Shown: positions 5,008-41,335, counted from the stretch's first letter. The stretch is 64,000 nt of DNA from Phoronis australis (GCA_002633005.1 NMRA01000531.1:202590-266589); one strand, 5' to 3'. Numbers and translations are program-made. Notes: a model not told the origin generated them from the sequence alone.

Positions 5008-5174
5008 CGTCGTCTTGCAAGGTGCACGTGGACTATGAATACACGGCTGAGCAGGAAGATGAGTTAACTTTGAAGGTAGGGGATATAATTAGCAATGTGA
5101 AGAAGGAAGATGGTGGCTGGTGGGAGGGTGAACTCAATGGCAAGGTGGGCATGTTCCCTGACAACTTTGTCACG
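5008..5174 (+). CDS. SH3KBP1: CIN85/CD2AP-family adaptor, coding exon 1 in this window: SH3 domain A
   Basis: tgtag|CG acceptor (phase 1), ACG|gtgagt donor (phase 0); encodes [55 protein letters not shown], a canonical SH3 domain. Confidence 0.93.
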
Positions 5175-5922: not shown

Positions 5923-6067
5923 GAGATGAAGGAGCCTGTGGAGGTGAAGAAGACTGAGAAGAAGGAACAGCGTCACAGCCAACATGGGGCCCACATCACA
6001 GCATTACAGGACAAACTGGGCAAGGGGCTGGCATTGGCTGGGCCACAGGCGCAGGTCAAGCATAGAG
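5923..6067 (+). CDS. SH3KBP1: CIN85/CD2AP-like exon 2 (SH3A-SH3B linker)
   Basis: cttag|GAG acceptor (phase 0), AGAG|gtcagc donor (phase 1); EMKEPVEVKK...QVKHR; phases match both neighbours. Confidence 0.8.
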
Positions 6068-9180: not shown

Positions 9181-9293
9181 ATGACTCGAGCTCAAGGCAT
9201 CACAAACGAGCCAAGGTGGCATTCAGTTACTCAGCTGACAATGAGGATGAGATCAGTCTAGAGCCTGGGACGACTGTGGAAATAATCAAAGAG
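9181..9293 (+). CDS. SH3KBP1: CIN85/CD2AP-like exon 3: SH3 domain B, first half
   Basis: Pyrimidine tract and catcag| acceptor (phase 1), GAG|gtctgt donor (phase 0); RAKVAFSYSADNEDEISLEPGTTVEIIKE. Confidence 0.9.
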
Positions 9294-9832: not shown

Positions 9833-9935
9833 GAGGAAGAAGGCTGGTATCTTGGTATAGCTAAAGGCAAGCAAGGGCTGTTCCCGTCTAATTTTGTGGA
9901 AGTGATCGAAGATGAAACCCCAACAGAAATTAAAG
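9833..9935 (+). CDS. SH3KBP1: CIN85/CD2AP-like exon 4: SH3 domain B, second half
   Basis: cttcctcag|GAG acceptor (phase 0), AAAG|gtagca donor (phase 1); EEEGWYLGIAKGKQGLFPSNFVEVIEDETPTEIK (not in the ORF track). Confidence 0.92.

Positions 9936-10982: not shown

Positions 10983-11014
<32 letters not shown>
10982..11014. repeat. (ATT)n microsatellite
   Basis: About 11 ATT units directly before the HINE-like element. Confidence 0.9.
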
Positions 11015-11015
<1 letters not shown>

Positions 11016-12075
11016 GCGCCCACATATTTATATGTGGACGCATTATGCCGTCATCTCTGTCCGTCCGGGCGGCGTCCGCTGCTCTATCTCCAAAACCCTT
11101 TGACATACGTTCATGAAATTTGGCACATATGTTCCATTCATGAATGGGACGGCATGTGCGAACTTTCGGACGGATCCAACTACCGGTGTGCCCCCTAGTG
11201 GCAATTTTAGTTTTTTACGCTTACCTTTGTATCTTCAAAAGTCCTTAACGGATTTTCATGAAATTTGGTATGTAGGCACCTATTAGTGAGATGACGCTAT
11301 CCTCCCGTTTTCAGATGGATTCGACATAGTTTGCGCCACCTAGTGGCCATTTTTAGTGTTTTCGAGTCTGTTTTTGTGCGTCCACCCCTCTATCAACCAA
11401 ACCGCTCAAAGGATGATTGTGAAAATTGGCATGTATGTGCTTACTATGTAGAGGACGGTTGACGATGATTTTCCGACGATTTCGACTACTGTGGCGCCTC
11501 CTAGTGGCAGTTTTTTTTTTTTGCGCCCATGGCTGTATCTCCCAAACCGTTTGCAGGATCTTTACTAAATTTAGCAAGTGTATTTATGTGATGTTGACAA
11601 CGGACGATGACGACTTTAGGATGATTCTGACTACCGGTATGCCTCTAGTGGCAATTTTAGTATTTGCCTCTAGTGGCAATTTTAGTATTTTACATTGACC
11701 TCTGTATTTTCATAGGTCTTCAGGTGTATACTTTGTGTTACTTCGTGACTATGAAGGAAAAGTTCCAAGTAGAAATTTGTTTCTGGCATTCTAATGCTGT
11801 GCTAATTTCGTATATTGGTAAATTTGTTTTTAATTCTATGTTTCTGTGGTGCTTTAAGCAACTGGTGTATAGGATGTGCTTGTATTATGAAGATTACTCA
11901 CATTTTGCCCCTAGCCTGTTGAGGAGACAATGTTCACGCCTTTCCATTTTGCTAACTACAACATATATATATGCCCTCTACTGGCCACTTTATGGTACCA
12001 ATATACAACCCTAGAAGGATACCGTTTGCAGTGCAATTGTGGGCACATTTCAACGCTCTGCGTTGCTCTTGTTAT
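11012..12075 (+). mobile_element. Helentron/HINE (DINE-1-like) non-autonomous element with internal tandem repeats
   Basis: 5' palindrome (tgcgcccacatatttatatgtggacgca), GTCC run, recurring ctagtggc(a/c)atttt / gaaatttgg core units, 3' stem-loop caacgctctgcgttg; related copies at 50043-51000 and 56575-57048. Confidence 0.65.
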
Positions 12076-12344: not shown

Positions 12345-12494
12345 AGCCCCCTCGTGAACATCGCCCTCCACCCCCAACTCCTGACAAAGAACCACAGCCT
12401 GAGCCTGAGCCTGAACCTGCCAAACCTAAGAAGATCCAGGGAGTCGGCTTGGGCAATATCTTTAAAGAAGGCCCCATTAAACTTCGGTCTACAG
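12345..12494 (+). CDS. SH3KBP1: CIN85/CD2AP-like exon 5
   Basis: acag| acceptor and ACAG|gttcat donor (phase 1 to 1); PKKIQGVGLGNIFKEGPIKLRST matches the conserved CIN85/CD2AP motif PKKxxGxGxGxIFKxxxxKLR. Confidence 0.9.
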
Positions 12495-13452
12495 GTTCAT
12501 TAATCATATTGCACGCCATTAAGTGCTGATTAGTACAGTGGCATCATTTATCATTCCTCAAAAAGTCAAGTTAGTCACTGCCAAGTTAGGAGTATGTACC
12601 AGGAATTTCTGAAAATAGACCCTAATTGCAAAAGTACGCCTGTGGTTGTTTTTTCGGTAACTGTTTGTGTGTTTTGAAAATTTGATGAATCGTTCTAAAA
12701 TGCGTATATAATATGAATTGAAGGGAAATTTTGTTATTTTGGTAGCACATTTTTGGGATCGCGGTTTTGCTCAAATGACTATCATTTAATGAGATATTCA
12801 TGGGCAACTATGTTCGTAACAAGTCATACTAGCTCAGCATGAAGGAGAGTTTTAACGCATGCGAAATAAGTATGGATGAATAAAATTCTGAGTTGTGAGA
12901 TACAACTACACACATTACAAGTGCTGTTTATCCAAACTGCACAAAAAATTTTGTTGCATCGCTTATGAACTTTTTGCATTTGTTTCTTTGTCAGTACTAA
13001 CCAATGGCCCTTTTAATTTATGGGGCTACTCACATTTACTGAAGGATTTTTCACTTTTACATTCTTTAAAATCAAGTCTCTAATAGATAACAATTGATAA
13101 ATATTTGCTTTAAAACTGCACAATAAAATGTTTGGCACTGTTTTTGAAAATATGCCCCCCTCCATTTCCTAAAATACGCCCGGGTGTATGTTCAGTTTCA
13201 CTTGACGTTTTTGAAAGTTCGTTTTACCGAATATTCGCCCATGGGTCTGTTTTCGGAAATTTTTGTTATTAGTTTACCGTGACGTGCAAAGAGTCTGGTT
13301 ACATACAATGTTTTCAGAGTGACTAGTGGGTTACCTTTATTTTGTTGGAAATGAGAACGACGCTGGAATCTACAGTTTATCAACAGACTTGTGTATGAAA
13401 CCATCTGTGTATTCTTGGACGTTGCTTAACATCATGACTGTCTACACTTCTG

Positions 13453-15352
13453 TAGGGCTGCCAACTATTACGGATTTATCTATTTTATGGCCTAAAAATC
13501 AGTAGGTGCAGATTTTCTGATGTTACAGATATTGAGCATTTAATTCTCTTCATAGAAGTCAAATTTGGTGTCCGATTGATAAAGATCGAGACAGACAATA
13601 CCTAAAGTTATGGAAATAGCCGAAAACAAAATCGGGCCAATAAGACATGTTCTGAGTGCTAGTACATAATAGAAGTTGCGTATGAAATTTCCCTTTCGTG
13701 ATTGACCAGTTGTTATTTGCAAAGGACAGGCCAATGAAGAATGGGCTTACTTGGTTTGTCATTGTGGGGAATCATATGCTTTGGAAATCATGTTAATGTG
13801 TCGAGAGCGAAATTTCGGAAACAAGTATATTGAGGAATTAGATTACATTAGAGAATGGAAACGAGTATTCTGAGGAATTAGGTTACATCAGAGAATGGAA
13901 ACGAGTATACTGAGGAATTAGGTTACATCAGATAATGGAAACGAGTATACTGAGGAATTAGATTACATTAGAGAATGGAAACGAGTATACTGAGGAATTA
14001 GGTTACATCAGAGAATGGAAACGAGTATACTGAGGAATTAGGTTACATCAGAGAATGGAAATGAGTATAGTGAGGAATTAGGTTACATCAGAGAATGGAA
14101 ACGAGTATACTGAGGAATTAGGTTACATTAGAGAATGGAAACGAGTATACTGAGGAATAAGATTACATAAGAGAATGGAAACGAGTATACTGAAGAATTG
14201 GATTACATCAGAGAATGGAAACGAGTATACTGAGGAATTAGATTACATTAGAGAATGGAAACGAGTATACTGAGGAATTAGGTTACATCAGAGAATGGAA
14301 ACGAGTATACTGAGGAATTAGATTACATAAGAGAATGGAAACGAGTATACTGAGGAATTAGGTTACATCAGAGAATGGAAACGAGTATACTGAGGAATTA
14401 GGTTACATCAGAGAATGGAAACGAGTATACTGAGGAATTAGGTTACATCAGAGAATGGAAACGAGTATACTGAGGAATTAGATTACATAAGAGAATGGAA
14501 ACGAGTATACTGAGGAATTAGATTACATAAGAGAATGGAAACGAGTATACTGAGGAATTAGATTACATAAGAGAATGGAAACGAGTATACTGAGGAATTA
14601 GATTACATAAGAGAATGGAAACGAGTATACTGAGGAATTAGATTACATAAGAGAATGGAAACGAGTATACTGAGGAATTAGATTACATAAGAGAATGGAA
14701 ACGAGTATACTGAGGAATTAGATTACATAAGAGAATGGAAACGAGTATACTGAGGAATTAGATTACATAAGAGAATGGAAACGAGTATACTGAGGAATTA
14801 GATTACATAAGAGAATGGAAACGAGTATACTGAGGAATTAGATTACATAAGAGAATGGAAACGAGTATACTGAGGAATTAGATTACATAAGAGAATGGAA
14901 ACGAGTATACTGAGGAATTAGATTACATAAGAGAATGGAAACGAGTATACTGAGGAATTAGATTACATAAGAGAATGGAAACGAGTATACTGAGGAATTA
15001 GATTACATAAGAGAATGGAAACGAGTATACTGAGGAATTAGATTACATAAGAGAATGGAAAAGGGATTTTGCATTTAGTCACGCTGACTTCACCACGGAT
15101 TGTCTTGATGTCTGAAACACAGGTACGGATCAGGAATTAAAAGATATCAGGATTTGTGGGGTCTTGGTAGTGTAGGAAGAAATCAACCATACCAACATCA
15201 AAAGCTGAAGTTGCCTTTTTAGATTAACAGGATATAATGGAAAATTAAATTTAAACAGAAAATTGTTGTTTTGGCGTGTTTCGATATATAGTGCTGTTGA
15301 ACTGGAATGAAGTGTGCAGGTTATGTCCTTCCTTAATGAGTTGGCAGCCCTG
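13453..15352. mobile_element. Possible hAT-type non-autonomous element carrying the 40-bp array
   Basis: Inverted termini tagggctgccaact / agttggcagccctg; no clear 8-bp TSD. Confidence 0.45.
13818..15061. repeat. 40-bp minisatellite, ~31 copies
   Basis: Unit gagaatggaaacgagtatactgaggaattag(a/g)ttacat(a/c/t)a, contiguous with no spacers. Confidence 0.97.
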
Positions 15353-15554
15353 TATCTGATCCATGTGTAGGATGGGTTGGCAGTCCTGCATCTAATTCAT
15401 GTGTAGGATGGGTTGGCAGTCCTGCATCTAATTCATGTGTAGGATGGGTTGGCAGTCCTGCATCTAATTCATGTGTAGGATGGGTTTGGCAGCCCTGTAT
15501 CTGATCCATGTGTAGGATGGGTTTGGCAGCCCTGTATCTGATCCATGTGTAGGA
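15340..15554. repeat. 36-37-bp minisatellite, ~6 copies
   Basis: Unit gttggcag(c/t)cctg(t/c)atct(g/a)at(c/t)catgtgtaggatgg. Confidence 0.92.
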
Positions 15555-15613
15555 TTTTTACCATTATCTTGATGACGTATACCAATAAGTTTTCAACATT
15601 CATGTCTTCTTAG

Positions 15614-15678
15614 CTGGGTCTGCTGGCAATAAAAAAGGTGAACATAAAGTTATTGGTGCTGATCTTGAGCAAAAAGAG
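15614..15678 (+). CDS. SH3KBP1: CIN85/CD2AP-like exon 6 (65 nt)
   Basis: cttcttag| acceptor, GAG|gtgagt donor; AGSAGNKKGEHKVIGADLEQKE; supplies the phase 1 to 0 change needed between exons 5 and 7. Confidence 0.8.
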
Positions 15679-17387
15679 GTGAGTTTGCATCATGATCATT
15701 TGACAGGTCCTGATAAAATTAGTCACAAGGTTACATGGTATGGATGACAACCGCCAGTTGATTTTGAATTTGATTTGACAGCTGTAGCACCCCCTGTTGA
15801 CTGTTTGATTATTGTCACAAACTTCCTTTTCTGTCAATTTTTGGATTAACGACTTCACAAATTTTGCAGAAGCATGTTTCAGAAATGTCCTCTTGATTTT
15901 GGGATGAATTGGATTCCCACGGCACACTCTGCTGGCAGTTTTAATTTTCGAATAAATATTTTTGTCTGCTCATTTTTGGCAAAATGAGTTTACTAATTTG
16001 TCCAAACTTGTCCTTCAGCTGTCATAAAGGATTGACAGATTTTGATGAAACTTTACCCAAATGTTTTTGCCTGGAATGTTCTGGAACCTGTCCATTAACT
16101 ACAGGGGCACCCCTGTTGGTCATTTCAGTTTTCAACAAGATATTGCTACATCAAAATTTTCATCAGAGTTATCTTTGTTTGTTAAGTAATTTGAATACAG
16201 CTTGCCAGATTTTTATTGAAATTGACATAGATATAATTGTTCTGAATGCAACCACCCAAGATTTTTTATTTCAAGTGACTTCTACCCCCTGCCGAACGGA
16301 TTTTATTGGAACAGCCTTAAGATTATATTCAATTTTGCATAGCAGTTTTGAAAATCGGTTTCTCTTTCATGCATGGTTCTTTTCCCGTGACATGTGTTCA
16401 TTTGTGTTGCAATTTTCATTTGAAACAGCCATATCTCAGACGTTTGATTTTTCTTCGTGCAACAGAGATATCTGACATCAAAAATGATCACTTTGGCCAT
16501 GTTACATCTCTGTTGTTTGATGTTAAATAACAAATTTGGGACATGTTTCCCTGCGTGCTGACTATAAGAATACACAGTTCAAACATGGAGTCACCTCCAA
16601 CTTAGGTCTTTTGGAAATTCATGCTCAGAGCAAAAATGGCAAGTTTAATTAAAATGTCAGCTATGTAATTATAATTTTTTGTGTGGCATTTTAAGGTATG
16701 AATTACTAAAAAAGCTTCTTGAGTGCAACGAGAGACTGAAAGGCTCCAACGGCCGTGAACTTGTTCGTGGGACAGTTATTTTATATTTTGTGCAGCATTC
16801 CGCTGGAAATAAAATTATGGTCAGGAAAAAATGGCTAAGAAGACCCGCAGTTAAAGGTTGTGGTAAATTATTACAAACTGATGGGTCCAAATAAAACCAC
16901 ATTTTTCAAACTAACAAATTTGGAACTCTCATTTAAATGAATCTCTCTGCCCAGTATTCTTTGCCGAACTTAAAAGTGCCTGACTGGGTGGAAGTTATCA
17001 GGGGGGTGTTACACCCCCTAAACACCTGCTAGAAGTTTCGTCCCTGTTTGAGTGCATCTTATCCTGAAAGCCTGAAAGTTTCATAACAATCCACCAACAA
17101 ATAACAAATTTTGACCGTTGCTAGTGATTGCACCCAATGTTACATATATCCTCAAAGTTTACATGGCACTGGCAAATGCTAAAAAAATGGTAGGGAAATA
17201 GTTATTTTTTATTGAAATGTGCAAGAGCCTTAAACCTGGGGAATACCAACAAGCTTATTTAATAATTGAATCCATGTTCATAACATGACATAATCTCTAT
17301 GTATCTCCCACAGGACATTCCAAAGATTATATATATATGTATATACATATACATATACATACAATCTCTATGCTGTTTCTCCCACAG

Positions 17388-17469
17388 GACATTCCAAAGA
17401 AGGCAGAGAGTCAACCTCGACCACCATCACAGCCTCCACCAACACTACCTCCAAGGACAGCTAAGGCGG
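17388..17469 (+). CDS. SH3KBP1: CIN85/CD2AP-like exon 7 (proline-rich)
   Basis: ctcccacag|GAC acceptor (phase 0), GCGG|gtgagt donor (phase 1); DIPKKAESQPRPPSQPPPTLPPRTAKA. Confidence 0.85.
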
Positions 17470-17695
17470 GTGAGTGGATGCATGGGTGTGGGGATCAACG
17501 CTTGTCTGTCATCTACTCTCATGCCTGGGCTTTGGTTTGCTAACATTTCTGTGCTCTGAAATTTATGGTCGCATCTTTGTGCAGGCTCTGGTTTAAGGCT
17601 ATTTTGCATGTGTGTGTCAGTATCAATAACCTTCCTGTCTATGTTTTTCTCCACCTATCCTCTGGTCTGTCACGCCTCTGTTTCATTTCTCATAG

Positions 17696-20600
17696 ATCTG
17701 CACCCTCCCAACCAACCCTCACTGACTCGACGCTCATCACTAAACCAGGCTAAAAGAGAAAACGCGTCAGGTTTCTCCAGCTGTGCCGATGCGGAGATTG
17801 ATCAGGAAAGTAACCTGTCGCATGATTTGTTTGATGATGCAACTGTAGATCAGGTTGGCATTATTTCTCCACCTTGCTCATCCGACAGTGCTAGCGAATT
17901 GTCTGATGTGCCAATGAACCTCACTCCACTGAGTAGAACCCGTGAGACACCACCGCCCAAGCAGACCTTTCGGCGGCGGCGCTCCTCCAGTAAAAAGAGT
18001 AGTCCTGAAGTCTCACATGAGGATGAAGATGTGGATCGTTTGGTTGGCAGTTTTTCGTTAGTGGAGACAGAAGCTAATAAGAGTTGTGAAGAACAATTCA
18101 GCAACACCCTTGAGCCTATCCTGGAGAGACAAGAATGCACTACATCTGGAGTGCAGCCAAAGCAAGTATCACGCAACACAGCTTCTATGAAGACTAAAAA
18201 ATCTACAAAATTTGCCAGATGCGGAGCTGCATCTAGGGCTCCAGTTGCTCGAAAGAGGTCTGCTGAGCCCAGCTTTCATCAGCCAGAACCACTGCATTCT
18301 GATAAACTGAAGAGGACCAAACGCAATAGCAGTGCTCAAGAACCTCAAGTGAAAGCTCAGGCTCGCAACCCGAGGTCCAACAGGCTTACACCGCAGTTAC
18401 CATCTAATTTCTGCCAGACAACTGTAAGTGGCATGATGCAACTTGGGCATGGGTTTGTCACTCCACCTGTTGCCCAATTGAAGAACTACCAACGTCCTGC
18501 GGACCTGAGAAGACTGTGTTTTGGGGGCAGAGGGGGAGGCAGGCATGCAAAGCAGCGTAATCATGACTGCACTAATGGTTCAGTTTCCAACCCCATACGC
18601 CCTACAAAGATTACAGATAGTGTCCGTCTTATACGACGGAGGTACAGTAAAAACAGGCGATTGTCTTCTGATGATCACTTGAACAGAGATCAGTGCATGC
18701 AGTTTCCAGAGGACTTCTTGAATCGAGAGTGCTCCTCCACTGAACAACTTCCTAGTGTTGAATTGCCTGATCTCAACCAGATCCAGAGGTCCTCGTATGA
18801 TCAGCAGGATAACTCACCCATTGGCCTGTTGAATGATGTGCTGTCTCTCGTTTTAAGCACAACTCGTTTTGATGAAAGTTCATCTAAAGCATTTACAACT
18901 GCTGCAGCTAACGTGTCCCCATCAAATCTGGTTTCCACATCCACTGCCTCAAATAAGGTTTCTGGCGCCGGGGGACAGAGACAAAATCTTGATGTTGTGA
19001 GGCACGTAAGTGAGCATGCTCCCGACAAGGGGTTCCCTAGTCACTATGGACGACCACAATCAGCTAGTCCTGATAGTTCTTACTCTGACACTAAGGTTGA
19101 CTTGAGAAGCCATCAGAAAGGATCTAGCCCCATATTTAAGGGTACCGTGTGTAGTTCTGTGAGCATTGACAGTGGAAATGTGTCGAGTTCCTATGATGAA
19201 CTGCGCAGAATACTGTCGTCAGAAAGCAGTAGGTCCACTCTGGCCAGTTTCGCATCACTCTTGGGTCATGCGTGTTGTGGTCCAAGCCATGGAGCTGTAG
19301 ACACGAAGGACATCAGTGTAGCTGATGATTCTACTCAGACAGTCAGTATCGATCCTCAGCTCAGTGACGAGGCTTCGTTAAATCTGTGTGATTTTTTAAT
19401 TCAATATATATGCAGTAAAAAGGAACAGAGATCTTCACGATCTGAGGAGTTGTCTAGTGGTCAGCAACCTGCCTCTTCCAGTATACTGCCTAACCATCAA
19501 CCAGATGTTAACGTTTCACAGAAGAAGTTCGATGTTGAAGATGCAATGTCTTGGGATGACTGGTTGAGGCTTTATGCTCCTAGTAATCAGCATTGCTCAT
19601 CGTCTGGTGTTTCCCGCCACAGAGACACACCTTATCCTAAATTGAAAAGTGTTGGCCATCTGCCAGTTATGTCCCAGTCTGTCTGCCCTCCACCCTGTGT
19701 GACCACTTGTCAGCAGGATCAGTCCCATAAACCTTCCGCTGTGCAGACAGAATTTTTGCAGAGCTCTTCTGAGCCACCTCTTGGAAGTAATGACAGCAGC
19801 ACTTCTGGTTGTGGCCTTCAGCAAAACGTCGCTACAGCAACGCCAAAACACAGTGCTGTTGTACTCTTGGACAAGCTCATGGAGAATGCACTGTCATCTA
19901 ATGAGGGTGAACGCAAGAAGAAACTGGAGAAGATATTCAGCTTTCCCAGTATCGCACATTTTTTGCAGTCATTGTCCTGCAAGGATATTAGTGCACCCAG
20001 TTGTGATGACAAAGTAAAATCCAATTCATGCTGTAGCACGCATAACAAGGACCAAGATATCTGTCAAAGTTCTGGCCAATTGTTTAAAAGCCAAAATCAG
20101 AAGCTAGCACAGAATGAGAATAGTCGAAATGACCCAGTCATTAACAAGTGTTGTGAACTATTACTAATGGCAGCACCAGAGCCCAGTAAGTACAATGAAC
20201 CTCATTCAGAGCGAGGTAAAATTTCGAACACCAGTCATTCGCTTGAGCAAGTTTCAAAGAGTCCCCTACAGACACCAGAATGTAGAATTGAAGAAACTTC
20301 AGAGAGATCTTGTAACAATGCGAGCTTTCCACATTTGGTAGAGCAAATGTCAAGGAGCCATATTTGGAAGCCAAAAGACCATACTGATATGACGTCTGAC
20401 ACCTTGTCGTCGGATAGACCTGTCATTCCAAGTTTAGCACTTTTGTTTGATCAATTGTCTCGATGTCAGCTTCAAAATCCTCCAGGCCAAATTGATGACG
20501 TATCTGATGCGGTTCCTCCTTCAGAGAGAACTGCTAGTATTCCCGAGGTATTATCCAGTCAGCTTCAAACATCTCGAGGCCAAAATGACATCACCCCTGA

Positions 20601-23600
20601 TGCACCTTCTTCAGATAGAGCTTTAAGTGTTCCAAGTTTTGCTCACTTGTTCGAACAGTTATCAAAAAGTCAGCTTCAGACACCTCATGACCAAAGTGAT
20701 AACAAATCTGATGCACCTCCTTCAGATAGAAGTTCTAGTGTTCCAAGTTTTGCACATTTGTTTGAACAGTTATCAAGCAGTGAACTCCAGACACCTCAAG
20801 AACAAAGCGAAATCACACCTGATGCACCTCTTTCAGATAGAATTTCTAGTGTTCCAAGTTTTGCACATTTGTTTGAACAGTTATCAAGCAGTGAACTTCA
20901 GACACCTCAAGGACAAAGCAAAATCAGACATGATGCACCTCCTTCAGACAGTACGTTTAGTATTCCAAGCTTTGCACACTTGTTTGAACAGTTTTCAAGG
21001 AGCCAACTCCAGACATCTCAAGATCAAAGTGACATCACATCTGATACACCTTCTTCAGGTAGAACTTCTAGTATTCCAAGTTTTGCACAGATGTTTGAAC
21101 AGTTATCGGGAAGTAAGCTCCAGGCACATCAAGACCAAAGTGATAACTTATCTGGTGTTTCTCATTGTGATAGGACTTCCAATATTTCCAACTTTGCGCA
21201 CTTGTTTGAACAGTTATCAAAAAGTCAGCTCCAGACACCTCAAAACGAAAATGACATCACACCTGGTGCACCTCCTGCAGATAGAACTTCTAGTGTTCCA
21301 AGTTTTGCACACATGTTTGAACAGTTATCAGGAAGACAGATCCAGACACCTCAGGACCAAAATGATATCACACCTGATGCACCTCCTTCTGATAGAACTT
21401 CTAGTGTTCCAAGTTTTGCGCACATGTTTGAACAGTTATCAAGAAGTCAGATCCAGTCGCCTCAAGACCAAAATGATAGAATGCCTAAGGCACCTTCTTC
21501 ATGTAGGAGTTCAAGTGTTCCAAGTCTTGAACACTTGTTTGAACAGTTCTCAAGGAGTTGGACCCAGACACCTCAGAACCGAAATGATAACATGCCTGAG
21601 GCACCTCCTCCAGATAGAAGTTCAAGTGTTCCAAGTCTTGCACATTTGTTTGAACAGTTATCAAGAAGTCAACTCCAGACAACATATGACCAAACGCGTG
21701 GCTTATATGATGCACCTCCTGATAGATTTTCCAGTATTCCAAGCTTTGCACATTTGTTTGAGCAGATATCAAGGCGTCAGTTCCAAACACCTGAAGACCA
21801 ATTCAATAAGTCGCATGATGCACATCCCTCAAATAGAGTTTCTAGTATTCCAAGCTTTGCGCATTTGCTTGAACAGTTATCAAGGAGTCAGCTTCAGAAT
21901 CCTCAAGACCAAACTGAAAATGTATCTGATGCACCTTCTCCAAATAGAACGTCTAGCGTTCCAAGATTTGCAGATCAGTTATCACAAAGTGCGCGTAGTA
22001 TTCCCAGCTTATTTGAACAGAAACCAAAATGTGTGGAGATGCATCACGAAGAAACTAGTACAAGCAATTTAAAACCACCCACATGCGAAGTTAAGGTTGG
22101 CAAAAGTTTCATGGACTTTGTGAGATCGTTTGAACAATGGTTAGGAAATCTACAGTCAGGTAGCTCCTGCCAATCTACATCCCTTGGTGAACCTGCAGTA
22201 AAATCAAAAATGAAAACCAACGGCAAGACTTCTAGCTTGTCAAGCCTTGCTCAACTCTTCAGTCCACAAACTTTGGAAGTGCCCAAGTGTGATCAGAAAT
22301 GTGGAAGTATGCTTGGGTCATCTAGTGTCTCTGCTTCAAATTCACATAGGGTTAGTGGTATGATGCAGACTAGAACATCTCCAAAATACGGAAATTGTGA
22401 AGAAAAACAAAGGTCAATGTTGCAATATCAGCCCGGGCAGCTTTGCTCAGAAACACCAGTTCGCACTCAAAGTATTCCTAATCTAACTTGTTCTACTGAA
22501 GAAGTTAGTAAAAATAGTGGTACTGCAACTACGAAAAGACCAGTTGACGAAAGTTGTTTAAAAAGTGCTGCGAGTAGCATTCCCAGTTTTGCCCATCTCT
22601 TTGAATCCTCTTCTGGTGTTGACCCTGGCACTGCATCACAACAAAAGGTTGCTGTTGGCAATAACAAGACTGAACCTGTTCCTCAACATCCAGAATCCAT
22701 CTGGAGCAGCGCTTACAGCATTGCCAGTTTGCTGCAGCAGATGTTTCAGCAGGAGACCAGCAACCAAGGTTGTGGTGTTGATGCACTGACTGATTACAAA
22801 GACAGGCACGAGAATCTCCCTAGTTTAGAGGTGCATGATCTTTATCAAAGGAAATCTGATGAAGGTGCTGGTATTCATCAGTCTGCCTTTTCACCCATGA
22901 CGATACCTCTTGGAAGCCCTGTCGAGACCCAACAATCTTGTCATCAGCAACCAGCATCTTCCATTGACGTCACTTCTCCGTCATTGAACACGAACAGGAA
23001 TGAAAGTGTCTTTGATACCCATACCTGCCAAACACCTGCAGATCATGGTCAGCCTAACAAGTGCAGTAACCAAGACGTATTTTGCATCAATGATCTCACT
23101 GTACCTGTGTACTTATGGATGCTCTCTCGTGGTGGTCAGTTGCTTGCTTCCTTGGGGCAGGGTCATGATCCCAAACTACCAAGTTTTGTTTTATTCTTCA
23201 ACATTCCTCCTTGGATGCTTGCCAATTCTTTTCCCTTCGAGAGCTTCACTCATTTTAGCCCAGTGCCTAGCACAACTACTCAAAGTGAGCACTGCACGAA
23301 TGACATTCATTCCGTGTCAGCGCATGCAAGTCAACCTTCTCAGTCAATCCCACAGGCTGATCTCCTTCAGTTCATGCACTTTGTCCAGCTCATAAACTTG
23401 TTTACGCGACACCACAGCCCTTCATCACCTTTGACCTCTTGCCCTGTCCACCAACTTCCTCAAGACCTTCAAAGATCACCTATTCCGCAATCATACTGCT
23501 CAGATAAAAATGTTAGCAGGCACTCTCCTGTGGCATGTGCTCCTATTCAAGCGTCTATTTTAAAGAATGAGTCAATTGTTAATTCTAACTTGGAGCTCCG

Positions 23601-26600
23601 GAGCACTCAGTCTAATGTTGGTGTTGAGAACATCAAAAATACCAATCAGGACACACAACCCAGTGTACATCATTTGTCATCTTACTACAGTCAGCATGAA
23701 ACTTCAATTGAAAATCATGTCAAAAAAGTTCCTGAAAAGCTGAAAAGCATGTCACCAGATGTGGTCAAACCTGCACAATGCGAAGTGGCCAGCATAGTTC
23801 AACAGCTTGAAGCTCAGAGTGCTTTGTCTGGGTCAAACCTGGAGGACCCTCCAGCTCAAGATAGACAAAGATCCAGGTCATCCAAATGTACCAGTGGTGC
23901 TTCTAAACTGATCAATGAATGCTGTTCTCAGGACATTTGTGACAAGGTTGATGAAAATGGTGCACAAAAAGGTTGTGACAATTCTGCACATGAATTTAAA
24001 AATCAGCCTTCAAGCTCAATGTTCACAAAACGACAAAAAGTTGATGGGCCTGATTACAGTGGCAGTTTGGTCAGTGGTAGGTTGCATGGTTGTGGTTACA
24101 AAAGTCAATACATAAATGATGCCATATACGATGATCAGATGTTGGCCTATCTGTCTCCTGAACTAGACTCCCCAGATGAGTATGACCCCAGTGATAGTAG
24201 AAACGAAGCGTACTTCCTGGGTCCTACTCACAAGGACCTTGACGAATGTTTTAAAGGTATTCATAAGGCGTTAGGGTTACCTAGTGATTCTGAAGAGGAT
24301 AGTCCTGGTGAACAAAAAGCTGACTTAAGAGCCGAGTTAGAACAGTTTGTTGGTAACTGCTTCAAGGAGGAACCTTTAACTGAACAGCTTATTGAAGAGT
24401 GTTCTCTCACTCAAGATTGTATGCCTAACCAACAGCTGTTAGACTCGGACATGTCAAAAGATGACTCATGGTCTTGTGATCTGGATGGTTCTGATCATGT
24501 AGAAATGACTGTGTCCTATGCAACTAAGGCTAGCAAACCACAAAAGATGTCTCCTGTTCGTGGCTTCAAGAAGTTGACAAAGAAAATGTCTCCCAGCATT
24601 CATAAGTTCAAGAAGAGGTTCAGCCCTTCGGGAGGTTGGAAAATGTGGGCTGGCAAAAAGTTGTCAAAGTACAAGTCTATGTCTCCTAATAAGAATTGGA
24701 CCATCAGCACAGAACCACAGCGACTTAAAATTGTTTCTGATAGTCTTACTAGCAAAGCAAAGACACTGCAACAACTGCAACTTCATGGGGAGCCATCCAA
24801 AAAATCTCAAAGCCTTGCCATTGGTACATTATCAAATTGTACCGAAGTTATAACTGCTGAAGATAGTGATGAGATGTCAAGCAGGACCTCAAGTCCAACG
24901 AAAAAGAACAGGAGATTCCTGTCCCCTCCTCCAAATGCTGGCAATGTTGGTTCGTTGATGTCGTCAGCCTTTTTTGGGCTTGAAGATTCATCATCTGCTC
25001 AGAAGCTGCCTTATCCTGTCGATAATGAGTTTAGCAAAATGGTACTTAAAGACAAAACTGTTGACTCAGTAAGTGAGAAAAGTGAGGTGAGTGGTCAAAT
25101 ATCAGAAACAGCAAGACGATCTCCTCACAATGAGTTCTCTTCAAGACCAGAGAGTTATACCACATGCAGTTCTATAGCCGGGAAAGCACAATCAATGTCA
25201 AGCCAAGACCATGTGGCAGAACATTCTTTCAGTTGTTTTACCAGTAATCATAGCTTGTCACGGCCTATTGTCCCTGCGAGTCATTTTTCTTCACATGACA
25301 GTTTGCAATGGAGATGTAAGGCCTCATATGAAGTGCCAAGTATCAGCTGTGGCCAAGACGCTTATGTTCACACATCTTCATCCAAGCAAAGTTTCAAGCA
25401 AGAACTTGCTAACTTTCTCAGTAGAAGGGAATTGAGACCTGGACTTCCCAACAAAGATGCAAGTGCTGCTAAATTGCACTCTACAAGTCTACCAAGGCAA
25501 CCAACTGATTGCTCAGACATTTCAAGCTTTGGACACATCTGTAATAAGTACAGAAATAAGACTTTACCAGGAAGATTAGTCAGCGCATCGTCAGAAGAGA
25601 CACCTGTTGATAATGAAGAAACAACAAGACTACAGATGGAGTTACTAAGCACTGCGAGAAACAAGATGGACAATGTCCTGTCTCAGTTATCATCTGCATT
25701 TCACCAGATGTCTGAAAGCCAGATGGAGTTACCTGTTCAAGCTGTCTGTAGACATACTGGCTCAAGCAAAGGTAAAGTTGAACAGCCTGAACAAAATGGT
25801 AATAACTCCAACATATATCCTTCACACACCACTGATGGTGCTAATCACGTAAATGTCTCCAGCCCAGACATGATAGCTGATGGTGTATTCTCTCCTGCCC
25901 TTTGTGCTGTTAAAGAAAACTACATGTCTGATTTGTCATTGTCGTTTGATGTTGGTTACAATTCATCAACTTATGGTGCTGAAAGTTGTGACGAAGCTAT
26001 CCAGAACTCGAAATCCAATGTTCAAGACCCACTTTTTCGCACAAGTGACCCGCAGTTGCTTATAGATGGTCTTGGTAATCAAAACGGCGTTGCTATGGAT
26101 ACAGTAAATAAACTGACTGTCGAAGAGTCTGGTTTGCCTATGTCGGAAAGAAAGATAGATGGCAGTGTTAGCTCAACCAGCTCTGGCAGTATTCCTGAAA
26201 ACGTAGAGGATTCTGGCCATGAGGTCATGTACTTGGACACGTGTGCTTTGTTAGAAAATGAAGAGTCCCCTGCCTCGTCAGATGGATCTTCCAGTGCACA
26301 GACAGAGTGTGTTAGACATGAAGGATGGCCTAATGATAGTGCATGCCAGAGAACGTGCTCTACCCCTCTTGAGCAAATGTACCAGGCTCGACCGCGAGCA
26401 CAAAGCAATGTACACTTGAAAAACTTCCTGAAGATTGGTGCTGCTCACATGTTCAAGACTCCAAGTTCTGAGGAGAAGAAGGCCAGTCAGTGGGTGACTT
26501 CAATTATAAACTCCAAGAATATTTGTGAATCGCCTGTAGTGAGAGAGTTGAGCTGGGATGACTATCACGATAGTCCAACATTCCTCAGTCCACTCTGTCA

Positions 26601-28089
26601 GCCTTCAACTGGCACTGAGGTGCCAGAGCCAAGCAACAACCCATGTGACATTAAAAGTGTTAAAGGAAAGCCTGAGAGGGAACGATGTGCTACGTCTGAG
26701 GTTGAGGAAGTTGACAGTGCAACAGAAAAATGTGGTGGACATGATAGCAGTGTGAACATTGACAGCTTTGAAGAGATTTTCTTAGATCCTTGCTGTTATG
26801 AGATCAGTGATATTCACTACTCCAGTGATGTGAGTATTAATAAAGACACGAATGTACCAAACGAAGCATCTCCAGAAGCAATGTCTCTGTGCCTTGCTAA
26901 CTTGGACGTCAACACACAACAGTACTATTCACTTGCGAGTGGTTCCTTGTCTCCGTCTGAGCCTAGAGTGTCTTTGGATTCAAACAAAGGCTCTGGCGTG
27001 ACAAAAGATGACACAGTTGTTGAAATGGATCCACCTTCAGATTATTGTGCTGATGTGCCATCTACTGAAGCCATGAGAAAACCTTTATGTACAGAAGATA
27101 TCATTTGTGAAGGAAGGAAGTCAATGAATGACAGTGACATTTTTCCACAAAAAGCATATATGCCTGCCACACCCAGTATTAGTCGAGATATTTCTCTCGA
27201 TTCCAAGAGAAGTCAGTCATTGGAACGAATCCAAAAACATCTGGATTCCATTGGGGAAGCTTGCGCCACTGTTGCCGATGGAAGCTTCTCCCAAGATGAA
27301 GGAAGTCTGCTGGTCATTCATGACTTTAATGAACTTGAGAAGATAGTCCGTACAGAGTTGGATCCCAAGCCCTTCTATGACTTAGAAAAGGCAAAACCAC
27401 TGTCGGAATATGATGACACTGACAGACCCATGGCACAAGATGTTTTTACAACTGACGATGTCAAACGAGAGTCCTTAGACAGCGACACTTCTAGTCTTGT
27501 TTCTACAGACACCTTGATCCACAATGACCGGGGTTTGGTTGATGAAGGAGATATGGAGACCGAGTACTATCCTTATGCAAAGGAATATATGGATTGGTAT
27601 TTTCCTTCAACATCAGCCTCTCTAGAAAAGTTGCCTACTTTTGATCATGATGTTGAAAACTTTTCAAAACTCGTAAGTGACAAGTGCAATGAGTTAGAGG
27701 GAGAGTCACAAAATTCCACCGCACTTGAGACAAGTTGCACTAGTGGCGAAACAGGTGGGAATGTTTCAGGTGTGAAATGTAACTCTGATATCACCTTTTT
27801 GCTCAGTCCTCCATTTGAAGATAGCTCATTGATGTCCAGCATTGCAGCGCTTGTGTCAGAGCTGATTGAGCAGGCATCTGAAGATGCAGCCAGGGAATTG
27901 GGTCAAAGAAGTTGGTCAGAGGTGGCTGTAGAAGAAGAACTTTCTGTGGAGGTATCCATTCTGGACAGCTCAGCAGAGGATCAGTTGCCCACCATATGTC
28001 CCGCTAGTGGTGCAAGCACTTCGTTTCCAAAGTCTGCCATGTTCTCTGATGAGGAGTTACCTGCCCCTGAGGAGGAAATGCGAGAATAG
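17696..28089 (+). CDS. Giant (~10.4 kb, ~3464 codons) putative alternative terminal exon of the CIN85/CD2AP-like gene; Ser/Gln/Pro/Asp-rich, probably disordered
   Basis: Stop-free ORF 17608-28089; pyrimidine-rich acceptor tttcatttctcatag|AT at 17695/17696 is phase 1 and in frame with exon 7; TAG at 28087-28089; AATAAA at 28404. Confidence 0.82.
20314..21990 (+). repeat. 111-bp (37-aa) coding tandem repeat, ~15 copies
   Basis: Consensus (V/I)PSFAHLFEQLSRSQLQTPQDQNDITPDAPPSDRTSS; ttccaag(t/c)tttgc recurs every 111 bp (e.g. near 20740, 20851, 20962, 21073). Confidence 0.95.
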
Positions 28090-28403
28090 TGAACCAAAAC
28101 GCACCACCTGATGAAGTGTTGCAAAACAGCAGTGGATGTCTCATAACATCTTATCTGCTCAAATTTTGACTGTGACTTTGCTTCTTTTTCTGCTGCGAAC
28201 TTTCCTGTCTTGACTATTAACCAGTTACTGTTTTTCTTTCGTAAGGTTTGTGTATTTTTAATCTTAATTGTTCAATGTAATTTCATTCTTGTTTACACTT
28301 GAGAGTTGTGGTTAGGGAGCAGTGTATTAGTTTTCAGTTAAGTAATTCCAGTGTTGATAGATTAAGTATACCATTTGTGAATTAGTTAATATTAGTGTTC
28401 TTG

Positions 28404-28409
28404 AATAAA
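28404..28409 (+). promoter_or_regulatory. Candidate intronic polyadenylation signal for the giant-exon isoform
   Basis: First AATAAA seen after the giant ORF stop, ~315 nt downstream, with T-rich sequence around it. Confidence 0.5.
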
Positions 28410-29404
28410 CAATTCCCTGTTCTCTAAATACCGAGTTTTCTACAGATTAAAGCCTATCCTTTAGTTTTCGTGCCAAGCAGGCAAACAGTTTGTCTTACTG
28501 TTGCGACATAACATTCAACTTAAGCATGCGTGTATGGCTTCAGATAGCATTAGACTGCTTGCCTGTGTTGCTTATTTTGCTAGATGTTTCAGGTTCACTG
28601 GTCCTTGAAAAGACCAGCCTTGAAAGAAAGGCTGTAGTCCAGTCTTCGGGTCAGTTTACATTTTTATTAACTCATTGAAATGATATTTTGTTGTTTCTGC
28701 CTTATTGAAGTGATAGAGAGGAAATTCGAACTGTTCTCTGTCTTGCTGAAACGTTGTTTCATAAAGCATTTTGACATGTGATGTGTCAACTGAAAGATTG
28801 CTCTGTCTTCTTTAGGAATGTGTTTGAGTACTTCACAATTGGTACATTGCAGTTTTGATACCAGTACTGATCACTAAAAATTGACCCACATTTGGTTTAG
28901 TGACAACATCTAATCCGATGTAAACCAGCTTCTGTCAAAAAATAGCTTTTGATATAGGCGGGCCCACATGATAAGATCTTTCGTTGGGAGATCTTGTGAT
29001 TTTTTATCAGCAACAAATTGTGTCATTTGGCTTTTGTTGCCAACCTGCACATGATACTGTTTTTTTTTTCATTGGCCAGGTTGTTACCAAGGAGACATTG
29101 AATATTCTGGCCGTTACCAAAATTGGTTCTCACTCAAATTAGGTCATTTATGGACTTGAGAAGAAGTGACATTTTGTAATTGTTTGAGACCAGGCTCAAC
29201 ACGTTGGCCTGTCACAGTGTTTCTTTGTATACACAGAGGATGGTTTCTAGTTGTTATGTAATGAATCATCAGTTCTTTCCATGTCAGTGAACCACTTATA
29301 TGAGTCGGCAGTATAATGAGACCAGTTTTAAAGTATTTAGTGGTCTAAAACAACAGTTTATTTAGTTTGGGAGGTGACCTGGTTTATAGTAGCTGTAACA
29401 GATA

Positions 29405-31329: not shown

Positions 31330-31514
31330 CTGAGCGGGCACGCGTCGTGTACTCATATGTAGCTGAGAATGAAGATGAGTTGAACCTGGAGGTTGGTGAA
31401 ACGGTGGTTATTCTGGATAAAGACTTAGAGGACAACGGGTGGTGGAAAGGAGAGGTGAATGGTAAAGTGGGCGTCTTCCCTGACAACTTTGTGGAGCTGT
31501 TGCCTCTAGAAGAG
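31330..31514 (+). CDS. SH3KBP1: CIN85/CD2AP-like exon 8: SH3 domain C
   Basis: ttcttgcag|CT acceptor (phase 1), GAG|gttggt donor (phase 0); AERARVVYSYVAENEDELNLEVGETVVILDKDLEDNGWWKGEVNGKVGVFPDNFVELLPLEE. Confidence 0.93.
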
Positions 31515-31881
31515 GTTGGTGATAGCTCAGGAGTACTCCCTCTTATGCTTGTATAATTGTAGTCTCTAAGGTATTTTTCAAACTGAAGTGTGTTTTATTG
31601 GTACACGTATTTTAAGAGATCATACAATGGGGTAATCTGAAAAGGTAATGAGGTGAATTGTGTCAACAAATATCAAAACGACCCATTTTCACTTACCTTT
31701 TCTCCACATTGAAATATTACGTTCTTTAGTTTGTTGCCTTCGTACCAGTCGTACAATTTGTGTTGAAGATTCTTTGTAAATTCAAAACAAAACACATTTT
31801 TTAAAGATCAGAAAGGGCCTTTCTAAAACTTAACCTCTATTCAGGAAGAAATTGCTTGTATGTCATAATGTTTCTTCTTAA

Positions 31882-32196
31882 ACGTGCATTTCGCCCTGCT
31901 TAGCTGGCTAAAAATGAAAATTGAGTTGGGCATTTTACTCTCATCAAATTGGTCTCATGATATTCCTTGGCATGATGGTACTCCATTTTCATTACCAACT
32001 CGCATCACATGCAATGCGTACATGTGTCATTTTCAAATTTGCAATTTTATGAATGGTGGTGGCATCCCAACTAACTCTGAAGCATTTCCTTGAGTCACAG
32101 GGATTTTTTTACCAGGAACGGAATTCATGATTATGAGAGTAAAAGTTCTAATTCGATTGTCATTGTTTAGCCAGCTGAGCAGGGCAAAATGCACCT
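31882..32196. mobile_element. MITE with TTAA target duplication (Kolobok-like)
   Basis: About 65-bp imperfect TIRs a(c/g)gtgcattt..ccctgct.agctggctaaa; TTAA at 31878-31881 and 32197-32200. Confidence 0.7.
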
Positions 32197-32367
32197 TTAA
32201 CCACTATGACATATTGAAAACTTTTATTACTGCTCTATAATTTCTGCCTCTAATCATGTTATTCACAATTATTGAGCTTATCATCTTAATGAATCTCTTT
32301 GATCACTTCCAAGGAGATTAAATGACATTTGAATTTTCATCATTTCGCGGTTTTTGTGTGATCATAG

Positions 32368-32497
32368 ATCAAACCCAAGAAGCCTCCACCACCGGCGGTT
32401 CCTGCCAGCACCAAACCAGACCTTCCTCCAGTAACAAAGGCAGAGCATCACCACCATCGTCATCACGAGAAGACTCCAGCAGAACCTCCTAAAAAAG
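32368..32497 (+). CDS. SH3KBP1: CIN85/CD2AP-like exon 9 (proline-rich region)
   Basis: catag|ATC acceptor (phase 0), AAAG|gtactg donor (phase 1); IKPKKPPPPAVP... matches the PKKPPPP that follows SH3C in CIN85/CD2AP. Confidence 0.9.
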
Positions 32498-35339: not shown

Positions 35340-35498
35340 ACAACAAACCACCACCTGTTCTGCCTGGTAAGAAGCCCGTACTGCCTCCACCAGTTAGTAA
35401 GAAGCCTGCTAAGCCTCTACCAGAAGCCAAATCATCAGCAAGTACACACAAGGCAAAGGAATCTGTAGAGAGAGAGAAGCCAGCCGTGGCTACATTGG
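35340..35498 (+). CDS. SH3KBP1: CIN85/CD2AP-like exon 10 (proline-rich region)
   Basis: actcag| acceptor and TTGG|gtaatg donor (phase 1 to 1); DNKPPPVLPGKKPVLPPPVSKKPAKPLPE... Confidence 0.87.
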
Positions 35499-36681: not shown

Positions 36682-36839
36682 GCGAAAGTAAGGATGAGTT
36701 GGACAGTGTTGGTGCTACAAAGCCTCTAACACACTTAACGACCACTAGGCCAAAGGGACCGACCAATAAAAGGCCACCATCAGCAATGTTAAAGAAGGAG
36801 TCATCTCCCCCTATGTCCAATGATACACATACTGAGGAG
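36682..36839 (+). CDS. SH3KBP1: CIN85/CD2AP-like exon 11: capping-protein-interaction (CPI) motif
   Basis: ttcacag| acceptor (phase 1), GAG|gtaggt donor (phase 0); LTHLTTTRPKGPTNKRPPS fits the CPI consensus LxHxTxxRPKx6P. Confidence 0.92.
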
Positions 36840-39208: not shown

Positions 39209-39534
39209 AGCACAAGCCGCCAGCCCGACCAGCCAGTACCTACATGAAAACTGCTAATCACGTGTCCGACTCGACAACAACAGGTGGGGGAGAGAGTAGT
39301 GAGGCCATCGCAGACTTACGTCAACAGATAGGGAAGTTGAAGGAGCACAGTGTGAGCCGCGAACAACACGAGACGCTGAAGAGAGAGCTGGCCAAGTTGA
39401 GGGATGAGTTCAGCCATTACAAGACGAGCACGGACAAGAAAGTTAAAATGTTGATGAGCGATATTGATGAAGAAAAGAAGGCGCGGCTGACGATGCAAGT
39501 GGAACTAGATAGGTTGAAGAAACTGGTGGATTAG
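39209..39534 (+). CDS. SH3KBP1: CIN85/CD2AP-like exon 13 (terminal): C-terminal coiled coil
   Basis: ttttctag| acceptor (phase 1); ...DIDEEKKARLTMQVELDRLKKLVD* resembles the CIN85/CD2AP C-terminal coiled coil. Confidence 0.92.
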
Positions 39535-41335
39535 TGAACGAACGGGTATGGATAGTGGTGGCAATATTTTGTTGACTCTTGTAGGTAAGATGAAGGTAAT
39601 GCTGATTGGTTGGTGAAGTAGGAACTATTGTTGGAAAGCATTGACAACATTTACCAAGTGCTGTTTTTGTTCATGGTTATCTCTCCTATTGAAAGCTTTG
39701 GATGGAAAACTTGCTCGTGAATTGACAATTGCATCAGTAGGTGGTAAGATATTAGTGCTTCTCAAGTCTGATGTACCAGGGAAGTCTGTTAGCTCACAGC
39801 TGTTCTCACTCACGTGTTGCGTGCTAATCGATTGTTGTCACAGCTCCAAGTAAATTTGGCTAGCTCATTAACTAAATGTTTAGTTCTACTTTAAATTTAC
39901 TATACCTAAAATGATGGGAGTTCAGTAGAATTGGGTACATAGACTATGCAATTGACTAAGAGAAACCCATAAGTGCATATCAGTTTCAAAATGTTGCTCG
40001 TTAAATTATATCCTGACCAAACGTCTGAATTCTTCATTTTTACAGTCACCTTGTTTCTGCGTAATGTTTTGGTCCGTGTTCACTTGACCCGCGCTTTGTG
40101 TGTTGATCATTTGTTTTTCAGATTTTGATATTGAGGTATGTCATTCATGGCTTGGTAGTCGTGTAGTGTTCTTTACATATTTTTGTCTAGTAATGAGATA
40201 TGGTTTCTCTAACAGTTCTTATAATTATAGGCAGATAAAACAAATTAATTTGAAAGTATGGGTCTAGTGCAAAATATTACTCATGCTGTGGCTGAATGCT
40301 AGTTCAACATGTAATTTCTTTGCTACTGGGTAGCAGGTACGTGGGATATGCTTATGAAACCATGTGCCAACATTTTGAGCAATGGAAAACGTTGATTTGA
40401 CTCTAGATGTAATATTAGTCCTGGAAGTCATTGGCCATTGATGACCACAGCAGAATAGCAAGAAGGGTTTCTAGCTGAACACCACACAGATGAATTCCTG
40501 TTCATTGTCCAGCTTGTACTCCAGACTGTTGTTCAATTTTTCGATAGTTAACATATGTGCCATTGAGGTTTTTGAAGCATGTATTTTGTTGCTGATGATT
40601 TTGATTACGACTGGCTACATTCTCAAGTGCTGAATTCATTTTCTTAACTCTATGATGATATTGACTTTGCGTGTTCGCTTATTTTTTTGACATTAATCTA
40701 TTTCATGGAAACAGAAGTAGGTGAGGCACAACACTTGATCATGAAATGCTGTTATTGGACATTAAGGCATTTTCAAGTCGTGTTTTATGATGAAGTTAAT
40801 TATTTTCTTGTTTGCATGTGCATCTTCACATCATTCCTTTTCCAATCCTCATATACCCCTATTTTCTGACTTTATGTGTTTGCAGCCAAGCTGTGTCTTC
40901 TACATCCTGTTTTTAGCTGGCAAACACTGTCCCATCAAAATTTTATTGTCTTGGCTTTAGTCTAAAATTATTAGCCTGGTGGCAGATTTAGCTTACGACT
41001 GAAAACTAGGGACTAGCATTTGTCCTCATCTAATGGGCAGTATATAAGTTTCAGCTTCTCACCACCCATGGTAAAAATTCCAAAGGCCTTTATTTTTGAA
41101 GCAAGTTTTTGTCTTTTTGTTGTAGATACAACAACCAATTACAGAAGTTGGTGTATCACTCCTCATGTGAATCTTATCTGTAACCATTACCTAACTTGAA
41201 CATACTTATCTGGTTTGTGAAATTGTATATATAATGTATTGTTATATGTTTATAATTAATTTTGCTTAAATATTTATGATTATTCGTACCTGGTGTCACT
41301 TGAAGCACTATCAATGTATAAAGCCCACATACTGT

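Follow-up and report, generated by a model that had tools for sequence, protein, structure and literature searches.

Host gene and short form

The window analysed here, a stretch of 64,000 nucleotides of Phoronis australis DNA (GCA_002633005.1 NMRA01000531.1:202590-266589), carries on its plus strand a gene of the CIN85/CD2AP adaptor family, in which a 10.4-kb alternative exon, probably terminal, is real, expressed and regulated and would give rise to a giant isoform with a different C-terminus. CIN85 and CD2AP are studied as adaptors of 70-85 kDa that function through their three SH3 domains, by binding capping protein and by clustering via a coiled coil. The best matches of the host gene are named SH3KBP1 or CD2AP, lophotrochozoan SH3KBP1 being about 40% identical from end to end, and Pfam placed the three SH3 domains on exons 5008, 9181+9833 and 31330 (Table 1). 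Judged from its translation, the gene also has a Pro-rich segment and, at its C-terminus, a coiled coil, as do CIN85, CD2AP and Cindr; coiled-coil Pfam matches in exon 39209..39535 were weak and below cut-off. The stretch LTHLTTTRPK is found in homologues as well and has no Pfam match; it fits the capping-protein-interaction consensus and is a candidate site for binding capping protein.

Splice joints were collected from three stranded raw RNA runs (X1-X3, of each of which 18-19% was read) and one contig set (X4), all under the same species label. Joints with at least 3 reads were listed, 12 around the giant exon and 15 of 29 upstream of it. The end of exon 12345..12494 was present as a loose end before 15612 in 31/20/11 reads (X1/X2/X3), and a loose end behind 32497 agrees with the start of exon 35340. 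A second acceptor at 28584 extends the 57-nt exon to 66 nt, while the SH3C exon has a second acceptor at 31306, used in 3/4/4 reads. An earlier note, made from the sequence alone, had given lengths of 3,740 and 613 aa for a giant and a short form. Its arithmetic was reproduced, the joined exons giving 612 residues for the short form before an assumed Met is added, but its set of short-form exons was incomplete: the RNA joints and an in-frame check add exon 28593-28649, which lies on the commonest path to SH3C, and the main short form is therefore about 632 aa. The 4-nt ATGG first coding exon assumed there was unsupported, since 0 of the 15 listed upstream joints enter 5008; the first coding exon probably lies upstream of the window.

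Table 1. Features of the CIN85/CD2AP-type locus. Reads for splice joints are in the order X1/X2/X3.
Feature	Coordinates	Strand	Evidence
Shared exon, SH3A	5008..5174	+	Pfam SH3_1 E 1.7e-16; joint to 5923, 18/17/7 reads
Shared exon, SH3A-B linker	5923..6067	+	Joint to 9181, 17/22/10 reads
Shared exon, SH3B first half	9181..9293	+	Matches positions 1-27 of the SH3 profile, weakly by itself; joint to 9833, 32/21/4 reads
Shared exon, SH3B second half	9833..9935	+	SH3_2 E 9e-6; joint to 12345, 30/20/2 reads
Shared exon, Pro-rich linker	12345..12494	+	Family-conserved GxGLGNIF..GPIKLR (alignment with 16 homologues)
Shared exon, linker	15614..15678	+	Joint to 17388, 28/15/14 reads
Final shared exon, with the phase-1 donor of the choice	17388..17469	+	PxxxPR match PTLPPR; sequence; four joints out
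Giant alternative last exon, coding part	17696..28089	+	Hybrid codon, 3,463 codons and TAG
In-frame tandem repeat, 111 nt x 12.8	20557..21972	+	Units end in an amphipathic PSFAHLFEQLS-type motif
Predicted helical hairpin	27202..27354	+	Sole stretch with pLDDT (predicted local distance difference test) >70 in the last 529 residues; single-sequence AlphaFold2
Putative 3' untranslated region of the giant form	28090..28451	+	AATAAA 28404, ATTAAA 28446; depth falls in bin 28055-28649
In-frame short-form exon, 57 nt	28593..28649	+	In, 13/9/5 reads and X4 contig; out, 13/16/4 reads
SH3C exon, confined to the short form	31330..31514	+	SH3_2 E 1.1e-15; best matches named SH3KBP1/CD2AP; joints
Two Pro-rich short-form exons	32368-32497, 35340-35498	+	Joint 31514-32368, 19/17/2 reads; translation
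Capping-protein-interaction-like motif LTHLTTTRPK	36726..36755	+	Exon 36682-36839, short form only; translation
Last short-form exon, predicted C-terminal coiled coil	39209..39535	+	Translation; homologous end in relatives

The acceptor of exon 17388 and its first bases have a short duplicate about 75 nt upstream (17290-17328 and 17364-17408), to which no joint was found among those listed.

A giant open frame spliced as a probable last exon

Analysis of the plus strand indicated that one frame is open from stop to stop over 17560-28089 (3,509 residues), while the remaining five frames carry 104-392 stops apiece over 17696-28089; the chance of such an open frame given the base composition is about 1e-88. 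As described in the earlier note, the donor at 17469 (gtgagt) and the acceptors at 17696 and 31330 are phase 1 and in frame, and the uninterrupted open frame has its own stop (TAG, 28087-28089) and a nearby AATAAA (28404). With the exons joined, the giant product would have 3,739 residues, 3,740 with an assumed Met, and a computed mass of 411 kDa; its end at 28089 is the same whatever 3' end the transcript uses. The tail is 16% Ser and its last third is acidic.

Reads joined donor 17469 to 17696 in 17/14/0 cases (X1/X2/X3), to 28593 in 13/6/5 and in a single X4 contig, to 28584 in 0/3/0, and directly to 31330 in 7/2/2. Both junctions that had been put forward for checking, 17469^17696 and 17469^31330, were thus recovered. 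The giant exon takes 17/37 of the joins from 17469 in X1, 14/25 in X2 and 0/7 in X3 (Fisher P 0.014). Over 17 bins covering 17940-28054, depth was 9-40 in X1 and X2, on the sense strand only, with a mean on the giant exon of 23 and 21, respectively; it was zero in 17/17 bins of X3, setting an upper limit of about 0.4% for the giant form in that sample. At the start of the exon (17769) depth was 12 in X1 and 14 in X2, in line with the 17 and 14 joint reads, leaving no room for a major internal start and giving no sign of a nested gene. None of the 12 joints listed from X1-X4 lies within or leads out of 17696-28592, and depth drops from 30/28 to 7.6/9.6 (X1/X2) in bin 28055-28649. The exon is switched on or off between samples, is transcribed end to end and likely ends its transcript; the joints, the sense transcription and the lack of an exit joint agree with the original proposal of a giant isoform spliced from the CIN85/CD2AP gene and not of a nested gene. 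Joints of SH3B and the following linker amounted to 50-53 reads in X1+X2 against a short-form level of 36-38, so the giant form likely carries SH3B.

A sense-only depth of 2.5/4.3 in X1/X2 and none in X3, like that of the giant exon, was also observed at 13341-13800, in the intron after 12494. No strong acceptor was found there; this could be another short last exon, or it could be repetitive DNA.

Selection on the frame and a 37-residue repeat

Forty variants were listed, beside 116 more, and 36 of the forty fall inside the giant frame. Fourteen of these are silent (8.1 expected, P 0.016), none creates a stop, and a 3-nt insertion is the one indel listed within the frame. The frame also contains a tandem array, absent from the earlier note, of 13 copies of 37 residues (78% matched, 1% indels). 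The ratio of nonsynonymous to synonymous change (dN/dS) over 12 units was 0.57 overall, 0.32 in the PSFAHLFEQLS-type motif and 0.72 in the linker; the unit at tail residue 1348, one codon short, was excluded. The array has no stops where 7.6 are expected (P 0.0007). The giant reading frame is under purifying selection, as had been supposed: the variants and the repeat dN/dS agree, and the 10.4 kb hold no stops, frameshifts or transposons. In 12/12 array copies the hydrophobic moment of the motif lies above the 80th percentile, so that the motif would be amphipathic if helical, and a single-sequence model predicts nine low-confidence helices inside the array.

Structure and motifs of the tail

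Single-sequence AlphaFold2 models of pieces of the tail had a mean pLDDT of 39.6 and 38.1, and from these models the tail of about 3,460 residues is likely disordered. A Foldseek search with the models, including the hairpin of Table 1, gave no match at E 0.001. Pfam gave 0 matches on the giant frame and identified no mobile-element domains in it, and no second copy of the frame is present elsewhere in the window. The whole frame had 0 matches among PDB sequences, while the repeat matched one designed helical bundle (E 0.026); the ESM Atlas returned no usable match for the repeat region or for a scallop tail. Of the motif patterns tried, SxIP occurs 8 times in the tail against 6.2 expected (P 0.27), and the helix of A-kinase anchoring proteins (AKAP) that binds the R subunit has one match against 1.67 expected, at 27841-27876, where a helix is predicted with low confidence. 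The LC3-interacting region (LIR), RVxF, BC-box and PxxxPR patterns are likewise not enriched in the tail.

Predicted long counterparts in molluscs

The two-SH3 half of Lingula SH3KBP1 was searched against proteins of 1,237-3,530 aa and gave 72 matches, 11 of the CIN85 type and the others intersectin-like. Eight of the 11 are long models in which two SH3 domains, and no third, precede a tail of 1,330-1,613 aa, without SH3C or coiled coil. They come from the chiton Liolophura (XP_064604049.1), Mytilus galloprovincialis (XP_076078692.1), Mizuhopecten (XP_021359394.1), Mercenaria (XP_045197889.2), Ruditapes (XP_060557523.1), Ostrea (XP_056016431.1) and Saccostrea (two, XP_062573779.1 and XP_061193527.1). 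A ninth long model, from M. edulis, makes the set one chiton and eight bivalves. All are automatic RefSeq predictions named 'uncharacterized protein' and were compared as proteins. The other three of the 11 were set aside: a Dreissena model (P0222) with a duplicated N-terminus and a tail plus SH3C, likely a merged model; a Mytilus model (P0088) fused to a kinase; and a gar model (P0223) with an N-terminal extension and three SH3 domains.

Accession runs indicated that long and short mollusc forms are isoforms of one locus, and in 4/4 species for which both were compared the two are identical up to a boundary just before SH3C. The residues after this boundary (G/V, G/E, G/E and D/E) are all encoded by codons starting with G, as are the D/A/G of the window, which fits the same phase-1 intron on both sides, as far as protein sequences can tell. 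The mollusc tails are 88, 63, 58 and 27% identical as distance rises, and those of chiton and bivalves share short colinear motifs (pairwise E 1e-7 to 5e-6). Three short motifs kept from chiton to bivalves (alignment columns 905-945, 1705-1745 and 2055-2125) may be the best leads to partners of the tail; none of the three was found in the tail of the window. All ten tails are Ser-rich with an acidic last third, that of the window being 2.1-2.6 times as long as those of the molluscs. A word common to the tails, D-I/V-T-P-D, was discarded as not significant (19/200 decoys as good).

The phylogenetic tree placed the window gene outside the molluscs (support of the mollusc branch 100/99; approximately unbiased test P 0.016) and nearest to Lingula and Owenia, with moderate support, a position that speaks for a likely brachiopod, phoronid or annelid.

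Three RefSeq models from Crassostrea and Mytilus edulis (P0134, P0145 and P0217; 384-403 aa) contain nothing but the C-terminal half, starting at SH3C or shortly behind it; here annotation may have broken the gene in two at the long last exon, or transcription may start at an internal promoter.

Described isoforms and giant exons

No giant CIN85/CD2AP isoform was found in the literature searched (mainly listings of non-subscription papers), nor any mention of the six mollusc locus identifiers. The earlier statement that none had been described thus stands for papers but not for databases, where shorter mollusc versions exist as automatic RefSeq models. Papers given by PMC number are cited from excerpts.

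The short form of the window has the three SH3 domains, Pro-rich region and coiled coil of CIN85/SH3KBP1, CD2AP and Cindr, and a candidate for their capping-type motif. CIN85 SH3 domains bind PxxxPR motifs and CIN85 binds capping protein (PMC3181483), the SH3 half of Drosophila Cindr alone suffices for junction localisation (PMC2290846), and Cindr functions at the ring canals of males (PMC13216642). In the mouse, at least 10 CIN85 isoforms with a common C-terminus exist, CIN85-xl being nerve-enriched (PMC3135365). Described isoforms, in these excerpts, lack N-terminal SH3 domains or gain short inserts, whereas the giant form of the window would keep the N-terminus and exchange the C-terminal half for 3,464 residues. 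The long mollusc models resemble it in having two SH3 domains, a branch before SH3C and a Ser-rich, acidic-ended tail, but differ in a tail of 1,330-1,613 instead of 3,464 aa, without detectable similarity and with no 37-residue array seen.

Giant ankyrins (AnkG 480 kDa, AnkB 440 kDa, Drosophila Ank2 L/XL and unc-44; PMC5135030, PMC5422562) likewise have one very long, alternative, Ser-rich exon, with lineage-specific repeat arrays; its position is kept without sequence, as may also hold for the exon described here. According to the excerpts, giant exons at one site have no sequence in common across phyla; the long exons average 8.1 kb, and Ser, Glu, Thr, Asp and Lys, together with Pro, exceed 55% of residues against a codon share of 32.8% (PMC5135030). 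These six residues make up 46.7% of the CIN85 giant tail, which thus lacks the compositional mark. Unlike the ankyrin exons, the exon described here belongs to another gene family, is probably terminal and would remove functional domains.

SH3D21/MNMIP1, a spermatid manchette protein (PMC13373224), is similar to the giant form in that SH3 is followed by a long disordered region in a specialised cell; it differs in being a separate vertebrate gene, with microtubule contact through SH3 directly followed by polyproline. This contact may resemble the SH3C end that is absent from the giant isoform. SH3D21 is presumably a CIN85 paralogue.

Interpretation

The reading that we favour, with a probability of about 0.6, is that the eighth exon is spliced either onward to SH3C or into the 10-kb coding exon, the second choice producing an old two-SH3, uncoupled, long-armed scaffold of one cell type. 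Cleavage near 28430, inside the intron, would make the giant exon terminal, and the transcript, including both SH3 domains, would be translated into a 411-kDa protein composed of SH3A-B with linker and a tail of about 3,460 residues. The two SH3 domains could continue to bind PxxxPR partners, be it at membranes or at junctions; having lost SH3C together with the capping-protein motif and the coiled coil, the giant form would, we propose, be unable to cluster or to cap actin. The tail would serve as an extended spacer, and its 13 repeated short amphipathic helices might bind one partner many times; a large structure could be built in this way in one specialised cell type. For that cell type the germ line is a guess to which we give slightly less than even odds. 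It is preferred because half of the joins from a broadly expressed gene would seem to need a sample dominated by expressing cells, and because Cindr acts at male ring canals and SH3D21 combines SH3 with a disordered tail in spermatids (PMC13216642, PMC13373224; excerpts). Ciliated or muscle tissue, or a life stage, is a tentative second choice, and neurons are a doubtful one.

We lean towards common descent for the position of the giant exon and of the long mollusc tails. There is an even chance that an ancestral lophotrochozoan giant last exon has been kept for more than half a billion years by position and frame and not by sequence, turning an adaptor that clusters and caps actin into two-SH3 scaffolds of 170-410 kDa for one cell type, germ cells or neurons; this would be a second gene family, after the ankyrins, with a hidden giant isoform that spans phyla.

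Several observations weigh against the scaffold reading or its parts. As to the transcript, no poly(A) reads were found among the loose ends listed (61 more exist), and sense depth near 3 goes on to 29244 in X1 and X2 (0.3 in X3); the depth over 28650-29244 may reflect poly(A) read-through of the giant form or a retained intron. The small exon 28593-28649 has 16 reads out and 9 in for X2 (13 and 13 for X1). For SH3A, 35-39 joint reads were counted in X1+X2, a number for which the short form could account by itself, and short reads cannot phase SH3A with the giant exon. X1 and X2 have common alleles that are absent from X3, and the runs have no tissue labels, so that tissue, sex, stage and individual are confounded. 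As to the protein, 22 of the 36 listed frame variants change a residue (ratio of nonsynonymous to synonymous polymorphism, pN/pS, ~0.46), which makes the constraint loose; single-sequence models are poor for any orphan, and low pLDDT is no proof of disorder. A search of the tail against 5.8 billion proteins of 1,929-6,141 aa gave 0 related among 2,996 candidates. As to descent, the tail of the window and those of the molluscs could not be linked by BLASTP (best E 0.058), by motif profiles (no better than 8/200 shuffled decoys) or by hhalign (probability 0.08). Moreover, the top-numbered isoform is ordinary-sized in Lingula, Lineus, Tubulanus, four Haliotis, Babylonia, Littorina and Physella, and also in Octopus, Branchiostoma, Apostichopus, Argopecten, C. 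virginica and M. californianus; the top-numbered RefSeq isoform is by convention the longest.

These last points would suit a real giant isoform of independent origin, the intron before SH3C simply permitting a last exon after two intact SH3 domains, so that phoronid and molluscs converged. We consider this unlikely. The failure of three methods to detect tail homology, the difference in length and the lack of a long model in Lingula, nemerteans, gastropods and Octopus speak for it, but the boundary and the inferred phase are the same, and the make-up and the acidic last third are similar. Furthermore, with identity already down to 27% between mollusc orders, loss of signal between phyla is expected, and annotation can miss the long form even within a genus, since M. 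californianus lacks it while M. galloprovincialis and M. edulis have it.

Distinctly unlikely is a neuronal giant isoform that, like giant ankyrins, organises axonal membrane or microtubules. The 10.4-kb length beside the ankyrin mean of 8.1 kb, the repeat array and conservation of position only (PMC5135030) match such a role, as does the nerve enrichment of mouse CIN85-xl (PMC3135365), both as excerpted. About half of the joins in two samples and less than 0.4% in a third would, however, be hard to obtain from scattered neurons, the composition stays under 55% and SxIP motifs are not enriched.

It is very improbable that the exon mainly switches off full-length CIN85, by early termination or by making a two-SH3 competitor, with the tail as loosely constrained filler. 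The pN/pS value, the dN/dS of the repeat linker and the absence of a domain would be compatible with filler, but a short stop exon would be enough for a switch, whereas 10.4 kb kept clear of stops, frameshifts and transposons amid introns full of repeats, together with 13 copies of a motif under selection, suggest that the tail has a function of its own.

Least likely of all is that the open frame is an independent nested gene, or a mobile element that was domesticated, and that read-through splicing into it is mere noise. The frame is open for 45 codons 5' of the acceptor (17560-17695); this piece contains two ATGs, has a hydrophobic translation and probably arises from the pyrimidine tract. 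Similarly, P0306, a model from M. edulis, and P0309, a protein from a contig, begin inside the intron. Against this, joint reads equal the depth at the exon start, neither a Pfam match nor a second copy was found in the window, and the mollusc models carry SH3 domains.

The scaffold reading would give the family a new use, namely an abundant on/off isoform in which SH3C, the capping motif and the coiled coil are exchanged for a tail that is five times as large as the usual protein. It would also provide, beside the ankyrins, a second case in which to ask what giant exons conserve once sequence is lost. The long models of oyster, mussel and scallop already exist, unlabelled, and a long last exon may account for bivalve annotations that split or misname the gene.

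Other features of the window

Upstream of the SH3A exon, 1719-2265 and 2757-3309 are inverted copies of a repeat element, 91% alike over 556 nt, and a similar inverted pair (47700-48064 and 48727-49097) lies on either side of a fragment resembling THAP (E 5e-4, short of the cut-off). Two tandem arrays, at 13817-15061 (40 nt x 31, 97% matched) and 15336-15555 (36 nt x 6), occupy parts of the intron that precedes exon 15614. An intronic repeat at 11005-12073 reached a depth of 600-1,300 on one strand in X1-X3 and has related copies at 50045-51004 and 56685-57052. On the minus strand, 57586-61690 is a broken retroelement with a reverse transcriptase (RVT_1, E 6e-15); its downstream frame looks like a tyrosine recombinase, without a Pfam match, and the element is presumably DIRS-like.

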